Of a stretch of DNA of 64,000 bases, positions 3,642-22,858 are shown piece by piece. A program made the position numbers and the translations under genes. Under the pieces are notes generated by a model, which saw only the letters and a program-made list of their open reading frames with translations, ran no database searches and was not told the DNA's origin. How positions within the stretch are numbered: position 1 is the first letter of the stretch; every line of letters begins with the position of its first letter. The stretch spans positions 1 through 64,000 of the IMG/VR virus record IMGVR_UViG_3300029305_005185; one strand, given 5' to 3'. Source of the DNA: a virus (taxonomy: Duplodnaviria; Caudoviricetes).

Positions 3642-5741
3642 ATGGCAAAAAATAAAAGAGGGTATATATCTGAGTTTTACCAATATCCGTTAAGCGGCGG
3701 CCCTTTTGTATATTATCAATCCTTACTTTCTAAACCTTCTTATGGAGCTAAACTTGTAGCTCGTTCTGCTTAGAAATATTTATTTGGAGCATCAAATATT
3801 CTTAACAGAGAAAACTATCATCAAAGAATAAGTCAAGCACTTAATATTCTCAAAGCAAACGCAGATGAAGAAGCTCGCAAAGAAGCCCTATATATGGCCA
3901 CATTGGCTAAAAAATTAGATAAATACGGCGTTGTTGATTTACCAGATATAACAGAAGACCCTTACGGTTTTATTGTAAAATTAAATGAATTTTTACGAGG
4001 AGCAGAATCATTTAAGCAAGAACTCTTAAAAGAAAGAGAGCGTATTCATACTTATCGCACAGCTATAAATAGATATGGTTCCGCGAAAGAAGTAGCAAAA
4101 GTAATTAAAAACGGCGGCGACCAAGATTTTACTTCTGAATAGTTAGCTGATGCTTTACATAATATTTCTAACACCATAGAAGGCCGCAAAGGACAATCAA
4201 GTTCTTTTACAACATATTCTTCTTCTATTCGTGATAATTCTTTAGCAGGTAAAATAGCAGAGGCAGTAATAAGTCGTTTAATTCAACTTCATGGTCCTGA
4301 ATTAATATAGGCTAATGGAAACCAATTTGTATTAAATGGTAGACAGGCTTATGCTATGACCACATTAATTGTAAATGAAATAGAACGCAAAATTATAGCA
4401 AGTGGTGGACAAATTACACAAAAAACTGTTGATAATATTAGAAAATCTATTTTTGATAAAAATGATTCTTCTAGTATAAAACAATATGATAACATTATAA
4501 ATAAATACATGGAAGCTAGTGAATTTCACGCCGAATCTCTTAATTCCTTCACTGATGCTGTTGTAAATAATGACAAATATAAGAAAATGCTAGGTCCAAA
4601 AGGTAAATATGGTCGCGGTATTTTAAACAAACGTATTCGTCCTTTGAAAGAACTTATTTCAAAACAAAAAGTTTCAGAACAAGAAAAGAAAGATATGAAT
4701 ATCGCATTAGAACAATTTAGTCGTGAATGGGCGGCCGCGGCATACGCTGCGCAACCTAAAGTTTATTTTACTGCAGAAGCTGATTTGGGAACTTTGTTTA
4801 AAAAACATGGCGAGGTTTTATTTTCTGGTGGCTATGCTAAAGATGATATTGGCTCAATTGTTGTTTCTTACGAATTTGGAGATGACAAAAAAACCAATTA
4901 GGCATTAAGTCATTTGGAAACAAAAATTAAACAAATTAACAGAAATGCTATGAAAAGTATGCGTTATAAAGAAGGTACTGCAAATGAATTTCTTAATAAT
5001 GCTTTATATACTTTAGAAAGTTTAGAAGAAATGCAACAAGCTTATGAAGAAACTGCCGCTGAGCTTGAAATGAGTATTGAAGAACTAAAAGAATTAGTAC
5101 ATACTTTTACTATACATGGTAACGTAAAAAGCTATGATACCATTGACGCAAAAACAGGTGCGTTTAGCGGCGGTAGTATTGGTAAAAATATTACAGAGCA
5201 ACTCACCAATTTTGCCAACCTTGTTAGTATTGCTGGTTTTGGAGGCGCTTATACAGACTATGATCAAGAATGGTTACTTACCGCAATAATTAACACTGGT
5301 GAAGGATTACTTGGTAGAGGAAATAGAGAAGGGTTAGAAAAATATCTTTCGGCTTTTGCAGGAATGTTACTATTTGATGATGCCTATCTTACTATTAGTG
5401 CTGGTGCAAATTAGTTAGTTAATTCTCTTGGCGGAACAACAGTAGATAAAATCCATTTGTATTCTCTTAATGGAACTATTGTACCTTGCTCTTTCGTTCT
5501 TTATGAAACCTATAAAAATTTAACCAAAGAATTAGCCGCTATTGGAAATGATTTCAGTGGAGAGCATGGAATAAAAGCAACTATTAAAGCGCGTGGTGCT
5601 ATTGGCGGCCCTTTTACTAAACCAGAAGACTGGGCTGCGGAACGTGATGCAGCAATAGCCGCCGCAGACATATAGATTCAATTTATGGGGCATTTTCTTG
5701 GTTTCTTAGATAATCTTGCCCATGCTATGAATCCAGGTTAA
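3642..5741 (+). CDS. large hypothetical protein (699 aa, 6 in-frame TAG)
   Basis: Track ORFs 3894, 4356, 4914 and 5457 share one frame; the only interruptions are TAG at 3771, 4140, 4308, 4899, 5412 and 5673; GAGGT RBS before ATG3642. Confidence 0.8.
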
Positions 5742-5745
5742 TAAT

Positions 5746-5774
5746 TTGACTTTTTCTAAATTTTATTATATAAT
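5746..5774 (+). promoter_or_regulatory. sigmaA-type promoter
   Basis: TTGACT-N17-TATAAT. Confidence 0.75.
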
Positions 5775-5801
5775 AAAAAAAAATAATAAAGGAGAATTCA
5801 A

Positions 5802-6827
5802 ATGAAATTTGAAAACACTGACGTTTGGGGCTTTGAACATGCCCTACGCGGAATGAGGAACCCAAAGGATAGTTGGCATTTAAGTGATAGCAAATATGAT
5901 GAAAATGCTCCTTATGGTTACGCCATTGGTCCTAAAGATATGAAACTCGCCAAAGCTCTTATTCATGGCGGTCCAGAGCATCGCAAGTTTTTGAGACAGA
6001 TTTTTGTTTCTGTAGATATTACTGCTCCACTTTATTGGTGGAAAGAATTTGATACATACAAAGTTGGTACAACTGCCAATTCTTGTAGCACGATGCATAA
6101 GATTACTTCCAAACCAATTACATTAGAAAGTTTTGAAATTGATGATTTAATCAATTGGGATAAGGCTGATAATCTTTGTAAGTATTATTCAAATGATGAC
6201 AACTTTGCTGAAATGACATCGCTTGTAGATTGGCTAGAAAATCTCCGTCTTTCTTATCTTGAATGGAAAGAAAAAGAAAAGAATGCTCAAGATAAGGAAG
6301 AACAAGAACGTTGTGAGTATAATGCCTATCTCATTTGGAAGGAACTTATCCGCTGGCTACCTGAAGGTTGGTTGCAGAAGCGTACTGTAACTATGACCTA
6401 TGAAAATCTTCATGCAATATGTTCTAAATCTCAGCGCTACTTCCATAAGCTAAATGAATGGAGCGGCCGCCGCAATAGTGAATTAGAAAATTTCATTGAA
6501 TGGGTAAGAGAAGAAATTCCTTATTCGGAAGATTTTATTCTTTATCATGAAATTGAAGATGAAATTAAAAAACGTAATGAAAATGTTGAATATGCTAAAA
6601 CTTTCTTGTCTGGCTGTGTACCAATTATAATTTTTGTTGGTCGTAATAACAATACTTTTATAGAACATCATATTGCTCCGCCAAAACAGATTGAATTTGA
6701 TATTTGGTTAGAAGCTATGACGGAAGTGGCTGATAAAAATATTAACGACAAAGAGAAAGAGTACCTCTTTATGATAATGAAAGATAGCGAACTTATAATT
6801 GGATACAAAAAAAATGAGGAAGCCTAA
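5802..6827 (+). CDS. phage ThyX-like (flavin-dependent thymidylate synthase-related) protein
   Basis: ALRGMRNP, HRKFLRQIFVSVDITAPLYWWKEFDTY and SCSTMH resemble a common Firmicutes-phage ThyX-fold family; recognised from memory. Confidence 0.5.
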   Translation: MKFENTDVWGFEHALRGMRNPKDSWHLSDSKYDENAPYGYAIGPKDMKLAKALIHGGPEHRKFLRQIFVSVDITAPLYWWKEFDTYKVGTTANSCSTMHKITSKPITLESFEIDDLINWDKADNLCKYYSNDDNFAEMTSLVDWLENLRLSYLEWKEKEKNAQDKEEQERCEYNAYLIWKELIRWLPEGWLQKRTVTMTYENLHAICSKSQRYFHKLNEWSGRRNSELENFIEWVREEIPYSEDFILYHEIEDEIKKRNENVEYAKTFLSGCVPIIIFVGRNNNTFIEHHIAPPKQIEFDIWLEAMTEVADKNINDKEKEYLFMIMKDSELIIGYKKNEEA

Positions 6828-6846: not shown

Positions 6847-7488
6847 TTATAGAAGAATGTTGGGAGCTGGAGTTTCAGCTTCGCCTTCTAATTCAGCTTT
6901 TGCTAATTCATCTAACATAATATTAATATATTCATTCGCGGCCAAATTATCTTTGGACTTAGTAGTATATTCATTGCTTAAACGATCAAATTCTGCTTTG
7001 CGTTCTTTCTTCAAGTTGTTAATATAAGAAGTAATAGAAGGTTCGACTGGCAAAGAAGCATAAGCAGCCAAATTGGGCATATTACTAGATAATTCTTTAA
7101 TAGCAAAAACTTTTAGCTCTTTCATTTCAGCAGTTTGAGCGGGGAAACGACAAAGATCAGCTAAAAGATTACCATAAATTGACATAAGATTTTCTAATCT
7201 ATTAATATCAGCATAATGCTTTTCCTTGACTTCTCCATAATGCCCATCGCGCTTTTCTTTTTGCTGTTCGGGAGTTAGAGAATCCATTTCCTGATAAAGA
7301 TCTAAAGCTTCGTCAGTATCGTTGTTTAGCTTTTCTAATTCAGCACTAATATCAATAGTACTTTGAATAGGAGCAATTTCTTCTGGAGCGAGTTTCTTTA
7401 AAGGAGCAGCATTCCATGCACAAAGTTTTAAAAACTCTTTCCAGTCAATATCAGGATTATTGTTTAAATAATCTGTGTATTTAGACAT
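6847..7488 (-). CDS. hypothetical helical/coiled-coil protein
   Basis: Open ORF with a GAGGTGA RBS before ATG7488; no TAG. Confidence 0.7.
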   Translation of the reverse strand: MSKYTDYLNNNPDIDWKEFLKLCAWNAAPLKKLAPEEIAPIQSTIDISAELEKLNNDTDEALDLYQEMDSLTPEQQKEKRDGHYGEVKEKHYADINRLENLMSIYGNLLADLCRFPAQTAEMKELKVFAIKELSSNMPNLAAYASLPVEPSITSYINNLKKERKAEFDRLSNEYTTKSKDNLAANEYINIMLDELAKAELEGEAETPAPNILL

Positions 7489-18288: not shown

Positions 18289-18814
18289 AAATACTTGCGC
18301 AGAAGCAATGAAGAATTATTATGAGGCTACTTATCATAAACGAGTTTTAATTATTGCTTTTGCCGATTATGTAAAATTCGTATTAAATAAATATTACAAC
18401 ACTCCCGCGGAACGTACAGAAGAATATCGTACTCGCATTCAGCAATTTGCTACCGAACAAGTACGAGCAAGTAATGTAAATTATTGGGCTGATGTTGTTA
18501 GCGATTTGCTTCTTGCCATTCAAGAAGATTGGGATATTGTAATTATTCCTGATTGGAGATTTGGCAATGAACGAGTGGCGCTAGTTTCTCGTTTCCACGA
18601 ATTTGGTATTCCAGTAAAAACTATGTTAATTGACCGTCCTGGCATTGAAGAAGTTGATGGTATGACTGAAGAACAACGTTCTCATTCTTCTGAACGAAAT
18701 CTTGACAAATATGATAATTTTGATTATAATGTTATAAATGAAACTTCTCAAATGCAAAAAACTATTCAGCAACTAATTGATATTATAGATAAGGAAGAAA
18801 ATAAAGATGATTAA
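18245..18814 (+). CDS. deoxynucleoside monophosphate kinase-like P-loop protein
   Basis: ARSGKNT, AFADYVK, IPDWRFGNE and HSSE motifs. Confidence 0.7.
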   Translation: MEKIFLLHAAARSGKNTCAEAMKNYYEATYHKRVLIIAFADYVKFVLNKYYNTPAERTEEYRTRIQQFATEQVRASNVNYWADVVSDLLLAIQEDWDIVIIPDWRFGNERVALVSRFHEFGIPVKTMLIDRPGIEEVDGMTEEQRSHSSERNLDKYDNFDYNVINETSQMQKTIQQLIDIIDKEENKDD

Positions 18815-19940
18815 AATCAACGATGTTTCCGAACTTTTCAATCTTGAGCCTATGAAATATTGGGCGCAATCTTCTACCACTTCCGCTGCGCAACAGCAAG
18901 CAAAACTTGAAGCGCTTATTGCTTCTGGCGAATATATTTTTTCCGAGAAAACCGATGGTAATCTTATTCGTATGGTGGCAACTCCCGAACGATTTGCTCT
19001 TCAAACTCGCGGCATTAGTAAGAAAACAGGAGAATATGGTGAAATTCAGGAGAAAGTTTTCTTTGCTGACGCGATGATGAATGCCTTTGAAGATACTACT
19101 GTTCTTATTGGCGAAGCCTATATTGAAGGCGGTACAGACAAAACTGTCGGCGCTGTTCTTCGTTCTCTTGATGCGCGCGCGAAAAAAGTACAGGTTGGTG
19201 ATAATATTGTTAAGTTCCGAATCTTTGACTGCTTCTACTATGAAGGAGAAAGTCTCCTTGATAGACCAATTATTGAAAGAATTAAATATCTCTCTGATGC
19301 CGTATCAAAAATCAATTCTCCTCTCGTATCTTACGTCAAATACTACAACGCTGATGATAAGACCTTCTCACGACTTGAATCCATTTTTGAGCGTGGTGGC
19401 GAAGGCATTGTTATGTACAAGAAAACAATGACTCCTGTTGAAGGACGCACACCGGCGTGGCAGACAGTAAAAGTAAAGCAAACACTTGGACAGGACGCCG
19501 ATTGTTTTATTTTTGGAACTAAGCCTCCAAAAATGGAATATGAAGGTAAGGAAATTTCTACTTGGCCTTATTGGATGAATACAAAGACAAATGAAAAGCT
19601 TGAAGGAAATCATTATGCTGAATTTGTAAACGGCGGTACTGTCGCTCCCATTACTAAACCTTTCTATAATGATTGGCCTGGTTCTATCGCCGCCGCGGTT
19701 TGGGATGAAAATGGTGAAGCGAAAATTCTTTGTTATTGTTCTAATTTGACTGATGAGTTTTGTTCTGAACTTCGTGATAATTACGATGAATATCATCTCC
19801 ATCCTATTCGTGTTCAGGGAATGCTTGTGTCGGAAGATAGATTTGGTAATACGAGTATTCGTCATCCTAAGTTTATGGGACTAAGAGATGATATTGCCGT
19901 TGAAGATTGCACCTTTAAAAAAATTGTTGGAGAAGAATAA
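18807..19940 (+). CDS. ATP-dependent DNA ligase
   Basis: SEKTDG (KxDG), IGEAY, FRIFD, EGIVM, VKVK and SIRHPKF. Confidence 0.9.
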   Translation: MIKINDVSELFNLEPMKYWAQSSTTSAAQQQAKLEALIASGEYIFSEKTDGNLIRMVATPERFALQTRGISKKTGEYGEIQEKVFFADAMMNAFEDTTVLIGEAYIEGGTDKTVGAVLRSLDARAKKVQVGDNIVKFRIFDCFYYEGESLLDRPIIERIKYLSDAVSKINSPLVSYVKYYNADDKTFSRLESIFERGGEGIVMYKKTMTPVEGRTPAWQTVKVKQTLGQDADCFIFGTKPPKMEYEGKEISTWPYWMNTKTNEKLEGNHYAEFVNGGTVAPITKPFYNDWPGSIAAAVWDENGEAKILCYCSNLTDEFCSELRDNYDEYHLHPIRVQGMLVSEDRFGNTSIRHPKFMGLRDDIAVEDCTFKKIVGEE

Positions 19941-20353
19941 TGAATTATATTTTAAATACTAAAACCAAAAAGGTAGAAATTTATTGGGATAATAATAATG
20001 AATATCAAGCAATTATAAATTTTTTATCTCAATGTATTTTAACAGAAGAAAAAAATCCATATATTATTAAGGCTAACGAACTATCACCAAATACTATTAC
20101 TTGGAATACAAATAATTTACCAAACAATATTACTTTTACTGGTAATGCTCTTGAAGGAGTTACTGGAGTTACTACTATACTTGATAGTACAGCAGAAACC
20201 GCTCTTAGTTCTGGTTTAGTTGATGCCACACTAGCGGATATCAATTTTACTGCTACGGCAGATGATATTGCTACAGCGTTAAAAGCAGAACCCAAAGAAT
20301 AGTATTGGCTAAATGGTAATCCCATAAATTCTATATAGTAGAAAACAGAATAA
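19940..20353 (+). CDS. hypothetical protein (ends at 20302 in code 11, at 20353 with TAG=Gln)
   Basis: TAATG coupling to the ligase gene; TAG at 20300, 20336 and 20339, then TAA. Confidence 0.6.
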
Positions 20354-20355
20354 TA

Positions 20356-20570
20356 CCTCCTTGCGTTGTTGAGGTTATAAAAACGCCGCGATGTGGACTG
20401 CGTAAATGGTCCGGTTAGTGCTAGCCAACAACCTTGAAAAAATTAGCGCCGTTGATATAACGTCAACTGTGTTCCTACGCACAGTATAATTGTTAGTAGG
20501 GGAGGAGAAGAACCTGATATGAGGGCTGAAACACATATCTTTAGCAGAAATGCGGTCATCAGCCTACAGG
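20356..20570 (+). ncRNA. candidate structured RNA with several hairpins and two possible pseudoknots (family unknown)
   Basis: GC-enriched intergenic block; many stems whose G-U pairs favour the + strand; one GAAA tetraloop. Confidence 0.5.
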
Positions 20571-20578
20571 GAATAAAT

Positions 20579-20607
20579 TTGACAAAAAGTAAAAATTGAA
20601 GTAAAAT
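20579..20607 (+). promoter_or_regulatory. sigmaA-type promoter
   Basis: TTGACA-N17-TAAAAT. Confidence 0.7.
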
Positions 20608-20626
20608 ATTTAATAAATAAAATATT

Positions 20627-20685
20627 GCTGTTTCGTAGCCCGCTTCGCGGTCTACTCCACAGCCCGTCGTGCTTCGCAACGACGG
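20627..20685. other. twin GC-rich hairpins with identical GCTTCGC/GCGAAGC apices
   Basis: GCTGT..GTAG.CCGC-TTC-GCGG.CTAC..ACAGC, then CCGTCGTGC-TTC-GCAACGACGG. Confidence 0.7.
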
Positions 20686-20696
20686 AAGGAAGGAAA

Positions 20697-20903
20697 ATGG
20701 AAAATGTAAAATATGTTATGCTTTGTTGGGATGAAGATTTGAAAAATAATTCTTTTATAATATTTCTCTCTGATACTATTAGGAGAAATAATGGAATAGT
20801 TCACTCTTTTTTAAAGAAAGAACCGGGCTATGGTGATAAATATTTTGCTCGAGCAGACTATAGAAGAAAATACCCAGAAGCAAAAATTATTGATGTGATG
20901 TAA
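20697..20903 (+). CDS. small hypothetical protein
   Basis: GGAAGG RBS, ATG20697. Confidence 0.55.
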   Translation: MENVKYVMLCWDEDLKNNSFIIFLSDTIRRNNGIVHSFLKKEPGYGDKYFARADYRRKYPEAKIIDVM

Positions 20904-20960: not shown

Positions 20961-21587
20961 TTGCCTGAATATATTTCTTTTGAAGAACTCGTAGAAGAGT
21001 TAGGTAAAACTAGGTTAGACCCAAAAGACTATTAGTATTATGATAGTCTATTAAATCATAGGACTATTCTTTTCAATAATGTTGTTGCTGACAAAATTGT
21101 AGAAGAAGTTATTTTGCCATTGAAACGATTTGAAGAAGATAGTGATATGGATAAGGTAACTTTAATTATTTCTACTCCCGGCGGTAGTTTAGCCGACGGT
21201 TTGATTTTAAATAATATTATTGATAATTATCGTAAGCCTTTGGAAATTATTGTTTATGGTTATAGTTGTTCCATGGGAACCTTATTTTTATGTGCCGGCA
21301 ACAAAAATCCAAATGTAACTAAAAAATGCTATCCGTTTTCTTTTTTCTTATTCCATCCTGGCCGGCTTAATTTAGATGATAATTCCGCCGCCGCTATGGA
21401 TTATATTGAATATCAAAAGAAAACTGACGCGGCGATTCGTGAATACATCATCAATGGAACCAATATAACTGCCGAAGAATATGATAAGCACGCTCGTGTT
21501 GAATGGTATCTAACTGCGAGCGAAGCAAAAGAAAAAGGCTTAATTGATGTTATTATTGGGGAAGATGATTTAAATGACGAAGAATAA
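20961..21587 (+). CDS. ClpP-like serine protease (1 TAG near the N-terminus)
   Basis: GGAGG RBS, TTG20961, TAG21033; RTILFN, ISTPGG, YSCSMG (catalytic Ser), FLFHP, EWYLTASEAKEKGLID. Confidence 0.85.
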
Positions 21588-22831: not shown

Positions 22832-22858
22832 GGGCGCGTAAGCGCCCTTTATTTTTTT
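22832..22858 (+). terminator. intrinsic terminator
   Basis: GGGCGC-GTAA-GCGCCC followed by a T-run. Confidence 0.85.

Follow-up and report, generated by a model that had tools for sequence, protein, structure and literature searches.

A probable pseudoknotted RNA between the DNA ligase and ClpP-like genes of gut phages that read TAG as sense

The 64,000 nucleotides (nt) analysed here, hereafter the window, are the first 64 kb of the 180,867-bp IMG/VR virus record IMGVR_UViG_3300029305_005185 (Caudoviricetes). Within this window, an ATP-dependent DNA ligase gene (18807-19940; PF01068 was matched on ligase relatives) is followed directly by an open reading frame (ORF) at 19940-20302, and the gap between this ORF and the next one on the + strand (20697-20903) holds the element that concerns us. 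The neighbourhood is one of replication genes, with an RNase H-like gene and topoisomerase II subunits in addition to the ligase. A first-pass annotation of the letters had proposed a structured RNA candidate at 20356-20570, in a GC-richer block between a stop codon and a promoter. That setting holds, as the block runs from the TAG at 20300-20302 to a promoter at 20579-20607, and its GC content, taken over 200 nt at a time, is somewhat higher inside (0.39-0.42) than in the flanks (0.22-0.37); GC content around the element is low, at about 0.3-0.4. We place the element at about 20348-20578 on the + strand (~230 nt, compared with 260-300 nt for the copies in relatives), with its conserved part beginning at 20348, about 8 nt 5' of the start first given. 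It is single-copy in its genome. We consider it very probable that the + strand here encodes a genuine RNA structure, a view that rests on covariation and conservation and not on folding energy.

Relatives were gathered by using a ligase alignment, which yielded 80 IMG/VR and 80 metagenome ligase loci. Closer ligase proteins, at 62-90% identity (P0001-P0008), were also matched in ENA and Logan. The element was located by nhmmer in 8 of the former and 3 of the latter, and DNA pattern scans added further contigs of the same types. These copies were grouped as four lineages besides the window, those named here being the L008 group (L008, L082, L011 and L183, with about 30 scattered differing positions in the alignment), the L007 type and the L003 type. 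All carriers are gut phages of about 165-181 kb that read TAG as sense. Four IMG/VR DNA pattern scans gave no lineage beyond those from nhmmer: among 94 stretches from one such scan, only the L007 and L003 types were judged homologs, and the metagenome scan contributed just one slightly different L008-type copy, L183. No relatives were returned by IMG/VR scans with the single proteins of the upstream ORF (ORF_up), the downstream ORF (ORF_dn) or the ligase, nor did blastn of the gap find a match among 50,697 phage records. A tblastn search of cultured phages with the ligase matched six records at no more than 28.4% identity, and thus there is no close cultured relative. Twenty other related phage records, 15 of them at least 90% complete, lack the element as judged by BLAST with the L008 copy and by R1, a covariance model built on L007 and L003 that is blind to the L008 group. 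One faecal sample (run X4) contains a window-like phage (three contigs at 99% identity or more) together with an L007-type phage, so both RNA subtypes co-occur; a 1942-nt contig from this run matches the window only at 20349-20390 and then runs on as L007 sequence.

Sequence conservation can be followed at several distances. A strain about 96% identical to the window, represented by an 18,974-nt contig of run X8, has 17 listed differences in the coding DNA at 20140-20340 and one in 20356-20570, with at most one further unlisted difference in its 20095-20714 piece; the same strain has a 129-nt stretch of ORF_dn replaced. L007 and L003 agree at 78.8% of positions in the RNA, compared with 63.7% for the ligase gene and 53.8% for ORF_up. 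At greater distance, the window and L008 still share 83% identity over a block of 72 nt (20385-20456), although their ligase proteins are only 53% identical. The whole element is only 57% identical in this comparison because peripheral hairpins have been gained and lost.

The 5' edge of the element is AAUAAUA (20348-20354), which contains a TAA at 20351-20353 and is invariant in the window, L007 and L003 (alignment A8). Starting 1 nt 3' of this TAA is PK0, an H-type pseudoknot at 20355-20386 that the first-pass annotation had missed. It is formed by stems S1 (20355-20359/20371-20375) and S2 (20363-20366/20383-20386), with an A-rich loop, UAUAAAA, at 20376-20382. On the three-way alignment A8, 27 of 27 cells are paired and three of the nine pairs are changed on both sides, compared with 20-56% paired in slid controls. 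A T>A change at 20367, the sole listed difference common to all four runs (contig cover of the stretch is partial in X4 and X24), falls in the unpaired loop L2 of PK0. The outer stem originally drawn around GGACT/GGTCC and GGTTAG/CTAGCC (UUGAGGUU/AACCUUGA) is not supported, as it uses the 3' strand of the covarying S1 and has no counterpart in relatives.

Immediately 3' of PK0, helix P1 (20388-20452; G20388-U20452, C89-G51, G90-C50, G93-C49, U94-G48) closes an inner domain. Model R1 matches the window at 20348-20465 with 35.2 bits (E 1.2e-7), and this match fixes the register of P1 and the homologous parts. P1 is kept in the L008 group, where a C>U change in L011 yields a U-G pair. In L007 and L003 the helix has 13 pairs, all of them paired and two with a one-sided change. 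The core of these two types has 79 of 79 cells paired and three double changes in one helix, compared with 31-48% paired in slid controls, and RNAalifold recovered S2 unprompted along with the same P1, P3 and P4. The domain enclosed by P1 spans about 52 nt in the window versus about 130 nt, with four more helices, in L007 and L003.

Within P1 of the window lie two hairpins that the first-pass annotation had listed among its stems, all of which are present in the sequence. The first, P2a (20395-20412; GGACU-8 nt-GGUCC, 20395-20399/20408-20412), has gained compensatory support, since it becomes AGACU/GGUCU in the L008 group. The same G-C to A-U change is carried by contigs of runs X22 and X24 (20395 G>A with 20412 C>T, among the differences listed, which for X22 extend to 20412). 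The second, written as GGTTAG/CTAGCC, would have a 2-nt loop in that form; what survives is P3a (20413-20426), a 5-bp hairpin GGUUA-GUGC-UAGCC whose stem is identical in the L008 group, where the loop is GUUC, and which is conserved without covariation. Joining strands AACAACCUUGAAAAAAUUAG and UUGAUAUAAC (20427-20461), the second of which comes after the P1 3' strand (20448-20452), lie mostly inside the 72-nt conserved block, and UGAUA(U)AAC is common to L007 and L003 as well.

Farther 3', helices persist where sequences do not. Hairpin hpA (20466-20485; ACUGUG-8 nt-CACAGU, 20466-20471/20480-20485) occupies a position that is a hairpin in all four lineages with unrelated sequences: GCUCCA/UGGAGC, CCAGAAGA/UCUUCUGG and CCUGU/ACAG(A)GG, the last of which has a C-A mismatch as its outer pair in the tabulated register. 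Its loop, UUCCUAC (20472-20478), can pair with GUAGGGG (20496-20502) to form a pseudoknot, PK1 (20472-20502). This pairing, like hpA itself, was part of the initial proposal and finds support in the L008 group, where UUAAUAC faces GUAUUUG: both partners have changed in two of the pairs, and a third pair is lost; PK1 is absent in L007 and L003. The next hairpin, hpB (20516-20539; GAUAUG-12 nt-CAUAUC, 20516-20521/20534-20539), had likewise been recognized from the start, and different but pairing sequences stand at the same place in three other lineages: GCUAUUG/CAAUAGC in L008, AAGAUAAA/UUUAUCUU in L007 and AAGGUAAAA/UUUUACCUU in L003, with an A-U to G-C change between the last two.

The remaining 3' parts are less widely shared. 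The second pseudoknot proposed at first (GGCUGA with UCAGCC), together with the GCA-GAAA-UGC hairpin and the CCUG/CAGG helix, is specific to the window, and the X8 strain shows no listed difference in 20368-20570. At 20551-20556, UGCGGU is a distal complement of GCCGCG (20385-20390) and may pair with it instead, in competition with PK0 S2 and P1. Its equivalent is CGCGGC in L008 and L011, with one mismatch in L183, and it lies inside a tail insertion that the window shares with the L008 group alone. The element ends in a G-rich tail (20562-20578; GCCUACAGGGAAUAAAU) resembling GCCGUAGGGAUAAAU at the 3' edge of L007 and L003. Overall, about half of the architecture drawn in the first-pass annotation survives, namely PK1 and three hairpins; the outer stem, the second pseudoknot and the CCUG/CAGG helix around it find no support, and the pseudoknot at the 5' edge had not been seen.

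We believe that these patterns are best explained at the RNA level. The tabulated helices comprise 252 pairs, a count that takes in duplicate lineages, a stem taken from the first-pass annotation and three rows misplaced by script, and they divide into 217 Watson-Crick pairs, 31 G-U pairs and 4 mismatches. Read from the opposite strand, the G-U pairs would turn into A-C mismatches, and they therefore favour the + strand, as had been suggested. A DNA-level element (an origin, an operator or a recombination scar), or conserved DNA with chance hairpins, could be imagined in a region of replication genes such as RNase H-like, ligase and topoisomerase II subunits, and it could appeal to the small number of sequences and to z-scores that are modest and, in the window, no better on the + strand. 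However, compensatory changes occur in at least six helices, two pseudoknots included, and hpA and hpB still pair despite replaced sequences. Iterons and tandem repeats are also missing, as a search of 20250-20750 found only GGAAAAT three times at the start of ORF_dn. Along with the G-U evidence, these observations make an element of DNA improbable.

A small protein-coding gene is more improbable still, to the point that we give it almost no weight. Candidate frames do exist: a 26-amino-acid (aa) ORF at 20519-20599 with GGAGG 11 nt before its ATG (20519), a 27-aa ORF at 20406-20489, and ORFs on the - strand at 20375-20536 or 20443-20679. However, no reading frame is conserved, given that matches between homologous stretches turn up in all six frames and the matching frame changes from one lineage to the next, and the hairpin-sized insertions and deletions in the element are not multiples of three. 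Similarity of the - strand ORFs is confined to promoter sequence.

Several points weigh against the conclusion that a structured RNA is present, and they should be considered together. There are only about five independent lineages, the homology and alignment of the 3' half were established partly by hand, and the structures were derived from the same sequences in which pairs were later counted. Observed values were reached by 56 of 500 shuffles for the L007/L003 core and by 21 of 500 for PK0, controls that are weak with two or three sequences. In the L008 group there is no evident PK0. The minimum free energy (MFE) z-scores of the whole element on the + strand are modest (-2.1 in the window, -0.9 in L008, -3.8 in L007 and -2.2 in L003), and although the MFE is lower on the + than on the - strand in three of four lineages, the interval 20356-20570 scores -2.7 on the + strand and -4.1 on the - strand. 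Comparison with shuffled sequences had been named as a check in the first-pass annotation; folding energy alone is unconvincing because a coding control reached a z-score of -3.2. Finally, a contig from the X24 RNA library (a metatranscriptome) that covers 20254-20478 in a relative about 88% identical may reflect carry-over of DNA.

The element matches no catalogued RNA family, in agreement with the initial failure to assign it, and judged from its sequence it would be a new family of structured RNA. A search with Rfam 15 (4227 models) gave no match at gathering score in the 64-kb window, only noise at E≤10 in 20250-20750 (ceN53 at 21.7 bits with a cut-off of 50, and mir-4791 at 16.3 with a cut-off of 100), and none at E≤1 in the homologous loci L003, L007, L008 and L011. 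ARAGORN found no transfer RNA (tRNA) or transfer-messenger RNA (tmRNA) gene in the window and no tmRNA genome-wide, and none of the 27 tRNA genes in the whole genome is near the element. Readings as a tRNA-like, T-box, 6S, RNase P or group I or II intron RNA were rejected for having neither a model match nor fitting anatomy. For a group I intron in particular, Rfam gave no intron match, all frames 3' of the element carry stops and a promoter comes next. A Type III antitoxin RNA of the ToxI kind was set aside because the only tandem direct repeats are the GGAAAAT copies mentioned above. A CtsR-box reading of the GUCA repeats was dropped because their spacing does not fit the consensus, and TTATAAAAA, read as a T4-like late promoter, occurs 32 times in scattered places with no consistent gene context and is in fact loop 3 of PK0.

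A ribozyme, one of the functions offered in the first-pass annotation, would here be a self-cleaving one, or another processing site, that splits the ligase-operon messenger RNA (mRNA) from the mRNA that follows. Phages commonly have self-cleaving ribozymes between their genes, and the intercistronic position, the pseudoknots and the invariant joining strands of this phage-borne element would suit such a role. Nevertheless, no known self-cleaving class was matched in Rfam, the element is larger than most such classes, and conservation between the two subtypes does not extend to its inner domain. We therefore regard a ribozyme as improbable.

How the RNA might be made can be judged from the promoters around it. 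The early promoter at 20579-20607 on the + strand (TTGACA-17-TAAAAT, 11 of 12 positions matching) bounds the RNA and is not part of it. It is one of 39 genome matches, 38 of them on the + strand, to a stereotyped AAATTTGACAAA-N-TATAAT sequence, with positions including 1998, 12316, 15397, 18702, 20579, 22857, 23676, 26392, 28812, 31286 and 36278, plus 28 more genome-wide. The nearest such promoter 5' of the element is at 18702, and none adjoins the RNA. A counterpart in L008 matches at 12 of 12 positions; in L007 and L003, the stretch from the RNA to the downstream leader holds none of the σ70 type. At other unit boundaries of the window phage, a GC hairpin with a T-run directly precedes TTGACA, as at the promoters at 22857 and 31286. 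The only terminator-like site at the element is hpA with its tail ATAATTGTTA, and two such sites were found in the region compared with 1.7 expected; there are none in the L007 and L008 regions and none at the element in L003. Elsewhere in the genome, at about 83.6-93.0 kb (outside the window), a palindrome AAACTATATGTTTAACATATAG recurs before several promoters, and GC-rich gaps such as 84669-84860 (GC 0.53) may hold further RNAs.

The locus has a recurrent organization across the phages compared. A ClpP-like gene was matched in 133 of the 160 ligase loci, and among the listed loci that lack the RNA its start lies about 45-100 nt past the end of the ligase match. Lineages with the RNA instead have an insert of 1-2.2 kb that consists of one or more small ORFs, the RNA, a leader with GCUUCG motifs and usually another small ORF. 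From this arrangement of sequences, the RNA is part of an accessory insert between the ligase and ClpP-like genes. Such inserts invite the idea of a stable noncoding RNA acting in trans, cut from the operon transcript or made from an unrecognized middle or late promoter, whose target would be a protein of the host or the phage, as in a decoy or counter-defence role. The idea draws strength from an RNA that is more conserved than both flanking small ORFs, that sits in a subclade-restricted insert between hypervariable small ORFs, and that is intact in L003 beside ORFs that look decayed. Its compact multi-helix fold, with 5'-edge pseudoknots that could halt a 5'-3' exonuclease and so fix a stable end, would also fit. 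However, searches of the neighbours with Pfam, PHROGs and the ESM Atlas revealed no partner protein, and no RNA ends were observed in contigs, which are unable to show ends. A small RNA promoter of its own was likewise not found: the scanned region upstream has none of the σ70 type, and phage-specific promoter types lie outside such a scan. As the element has neither a σ70-type promoter nor an intrinsic terminator of its own, an independent noncoding RNA gene is not supported, and we consider action in trans unlikely. The original label of a novel phage noncoding RNA is apt in the sense of a conserved, covarying and pseudoknotted + strand RNA without an Rfam match.

The small ORFs of the insert diverge fast, and no family was matched for them. 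ORF_up (19940-20353, + strand) encodes 120 aa to the TAG at 20300-20302, or 137 aa if TAG is a sense codon. The extended form would pass TAGs at 20300, 20336 and 20339 and end at the TAA at 20351-20353, which aligns with the TAA of L007; PK0 abuts the end of ORF_up in the window provided that TAG is read through. ORF_up is homologous to the ORF preceding the RNA in L007 (28% identity, E 4e-9). On the other side, ORF_dn (20697-20903, + strand) encodes 68 aa and is 25% identical to its L008 counterpart. Neither ORF has a Pfam or PHROG match, and the ESM Atlas gave no usable match for them; the sole PHROG matches are to families of unknown function and concern a different L007 ORF.

Between the promoter and ORF_dn lies a GC-rich leader (20625-20696, + strand) with two hairpins bearing GCUUCG motifs, followed by the ribosome-binding site of ORF_dn. 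This leader is a candidate for a further regulatory RNA or for a 5' stabilizer. By eye, GC(A)(C)UUCG occurs one to three times per leader in the window (20625-20696), L008 (~6975-7083), L007 (~6013-6152) and L003 (~6063-6194), and other leaders of the window phage are only about 25-35 nt long. A conserved noncoding motif, GGTTTAAGGATAA(A/C)TTTGTCC, lies 5' of the ClpP-like gene in L007 (6340-6365) and L003 (6224-6248). At the ligase 3' end in L008 (5085-6093) there is a 318-aa ORF with 11 in-frame TAGs that resembles a GIY-YIG homing endonuclease, a family assigned by eye from its motif, and 3' of it stands a second copy of the ligase C-terminus (...RDDIDINDCTLSKIVGKE) that resembles a homing scar.

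TAG is read as sense in the window phage group, given that the L007 and L003 orthologs of ORF_up have an in-frame TAG at codon 9 and that the window ClpP-like gene (20961-21587) has an in-frame TAG spanned by its tblastn match, where relatives have Q by eye. The tRNA genes listed by ARAGORN include one of 91 nt with anticodon CUA at 150928-151018. This pattern is consistent with the recoding of TAG to glutamine published for gut phages (10.1101/2021.08.26.457843). In-frame TAGs are densest at 40-60 kb. ORF_up would continue beyond 20302 by TAG read-through. The L003 ortholog of ORF_up (5435-5806) has an in-frame TAA at codon 69 plus two TAGs and may be a decaying gene that adjoins an intact RNA; the L003 RNA is intact although its ORF_up carries this TAA and no clear ORF_dn was seen.

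Taking the locus as a whole, the explanation that we tentatively prefer, while granting it somewhat less than an even share of our confidence, is that of a cis-acting intercistronic RNA element. The RNA would be carried inside a polycistronic early transcript and act on that transcript, and it would occupy the place where this phage normally puts a terminator hairpin and T-run before a promoter. As an intercistronic folding module, it would act as a gate between the ligase operon and the ClpP-like operon, setting what goes through. That it does so by acting in cis on read-through, processing or exonuclease progress is possible, and we hold this part a little more loosely. Two features could make its action conditional: ribosomes finishing ORF_up would have to melt PK0, and the 3' strand of P1 could switch to a local hairpin in every lineage. 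One objection to a cis-acting role is that, in the window and in the L008 group, the downstream genes are preceded by a consensus promoter placed 3' of the RNA, so that these genes could be expressed without the RNA. The P1-closed domain is also the most variable part of the element.

The possible switch of P1 also speaks for a ligand-sensing riboswitch in which P1 and a local hairpin would compete to control the downstream genes. By eye, the P1 3' strand has an alternative local partner in each lineage, with GUUAUC...GAUAAC in L007 and L003, and CGUU...AACG or GUUGAU...GUCAAC in the window. The last of these had been listed in the first-pass annotation as a stem in its own right; the pairing is present in the sequence, but it overlaps the P1 3' strand. 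In L007 and L003 the RNA is also upstream of the leader and genes with no promoter between, an arrangement that a riboswitch could exploit. However, the variability of the P1-enclosed domain, which differs in size, sequence and helices between the subtypes, disfavours a conserved ligand pocket, and no common ligand core was found. Nor was a terminator or a ribosome-binding-site-sequestering helix competing with P1 found in the window, L003, L007 and L008 regions. Given in addition the promoter that intervenes in two lineages and the lack of a match to any riboswitch family, we rate a riboswitch as quite improbable.

A bolder form of the cis-acting element, which we regard as a long shot, is that it senses the switch of genetic code by the phage. 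Ribosomes would reach the TAA adjoining PK0 only once tRNA(CUA) suppresses TAG, their entry would melt PK0 and P1, and the refolded RNA would alter how the transcript that runs into the ClpP-like operon is read through, processed or kept stable. Three TAGs fall within the last 18 codons of the window ORF_up, and the first gene of the window ClpP-like operon itself needs TAG read-through. However, the in-frame TAA of the L003 ORF speaks against this possibility, as does the L008 group, which has a different upstream ORF without TAG.

Comparison with known systems helps to define what would be distinctive about a cis-acting element of this kind. The put RNAs consist of two stem-loops, about 70 nt in size, that closely follow a promoter, and the eps-associated EAR RNA of Bacillus is an example of an intercistronic RNA for processive antitermination. 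HK022 putRNA is described as a cis-acting RNA of processive antitermination (PMC9378689), and our element resembles it in being a phage-borne, noncoding structured RNA of the early transcript at a transcription-unit boundary where a terminator is expected. Unlike put, it is 230-300 nt long and pseudoknotted, adjoins a stop codon and precedes a promoter, and there is no sequence or model match between them. Like exonuclease-resistant RNAs (xrRNAs) and the 5' stabilizers of Gram-positive mRNAs, it has a pseudoknot at its 5' edge that could stop a 5'-3' exonuclease, but it has no similarity to the xrRNA families in Rfam. A nuclease block at the 3' end had been offered in the first-pass annotation, whereas the anatomy of the element suggests a 5' block if any.

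PK0 also invites comparison with viral recoding signals, the H-type pseudoknots found beside stop codons or slippery sites. Recoding pseudoknots are placed about 5-9 nt past the site that is recoded, with a longer frame beyond them; PK0, in contrast, has a spacer of 1 nt, and downstream of it all frames soon end. Like these pseudoknots and the T4 gene 32 operator pseudoknot (mentioned in PMC10690425), it is of the H type; its fold is compact, its third loop is A-rich, and it stands where an ORF ends, whereas the T4 operator lies 5' of the gene it regulates. At the level of discovery, the element is similar to the orphan RNA motifs of phages and microbiomes (PMC10690425, PMC8040213), being conserved, intergenic, covarying and found only on metagenomic phage contigs. 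A word search of the main text of PMC10690425 gave no mention of it, and the motif catalogue of that work is in its supplements, so an earlier listing is possible.

The small number of lineages restricts what can be claimed at present. Animal and human guts commonly harbour phages in which TAG is reassigned, and the timing and coordination of their code switch are largely unknown (10.1101/2021.08.26.457843). Against this background, a multi-pseudoknot RNA that abuts the stop of a TAG-bearing ORF is a testable candidate for a new RNA-based device of control or counter-defence. Even if its role proves mundane, such as the processing or protection of mRNA, it would represent a new family of structured RNA whose helices and tertiary contacts would be of structural interest.

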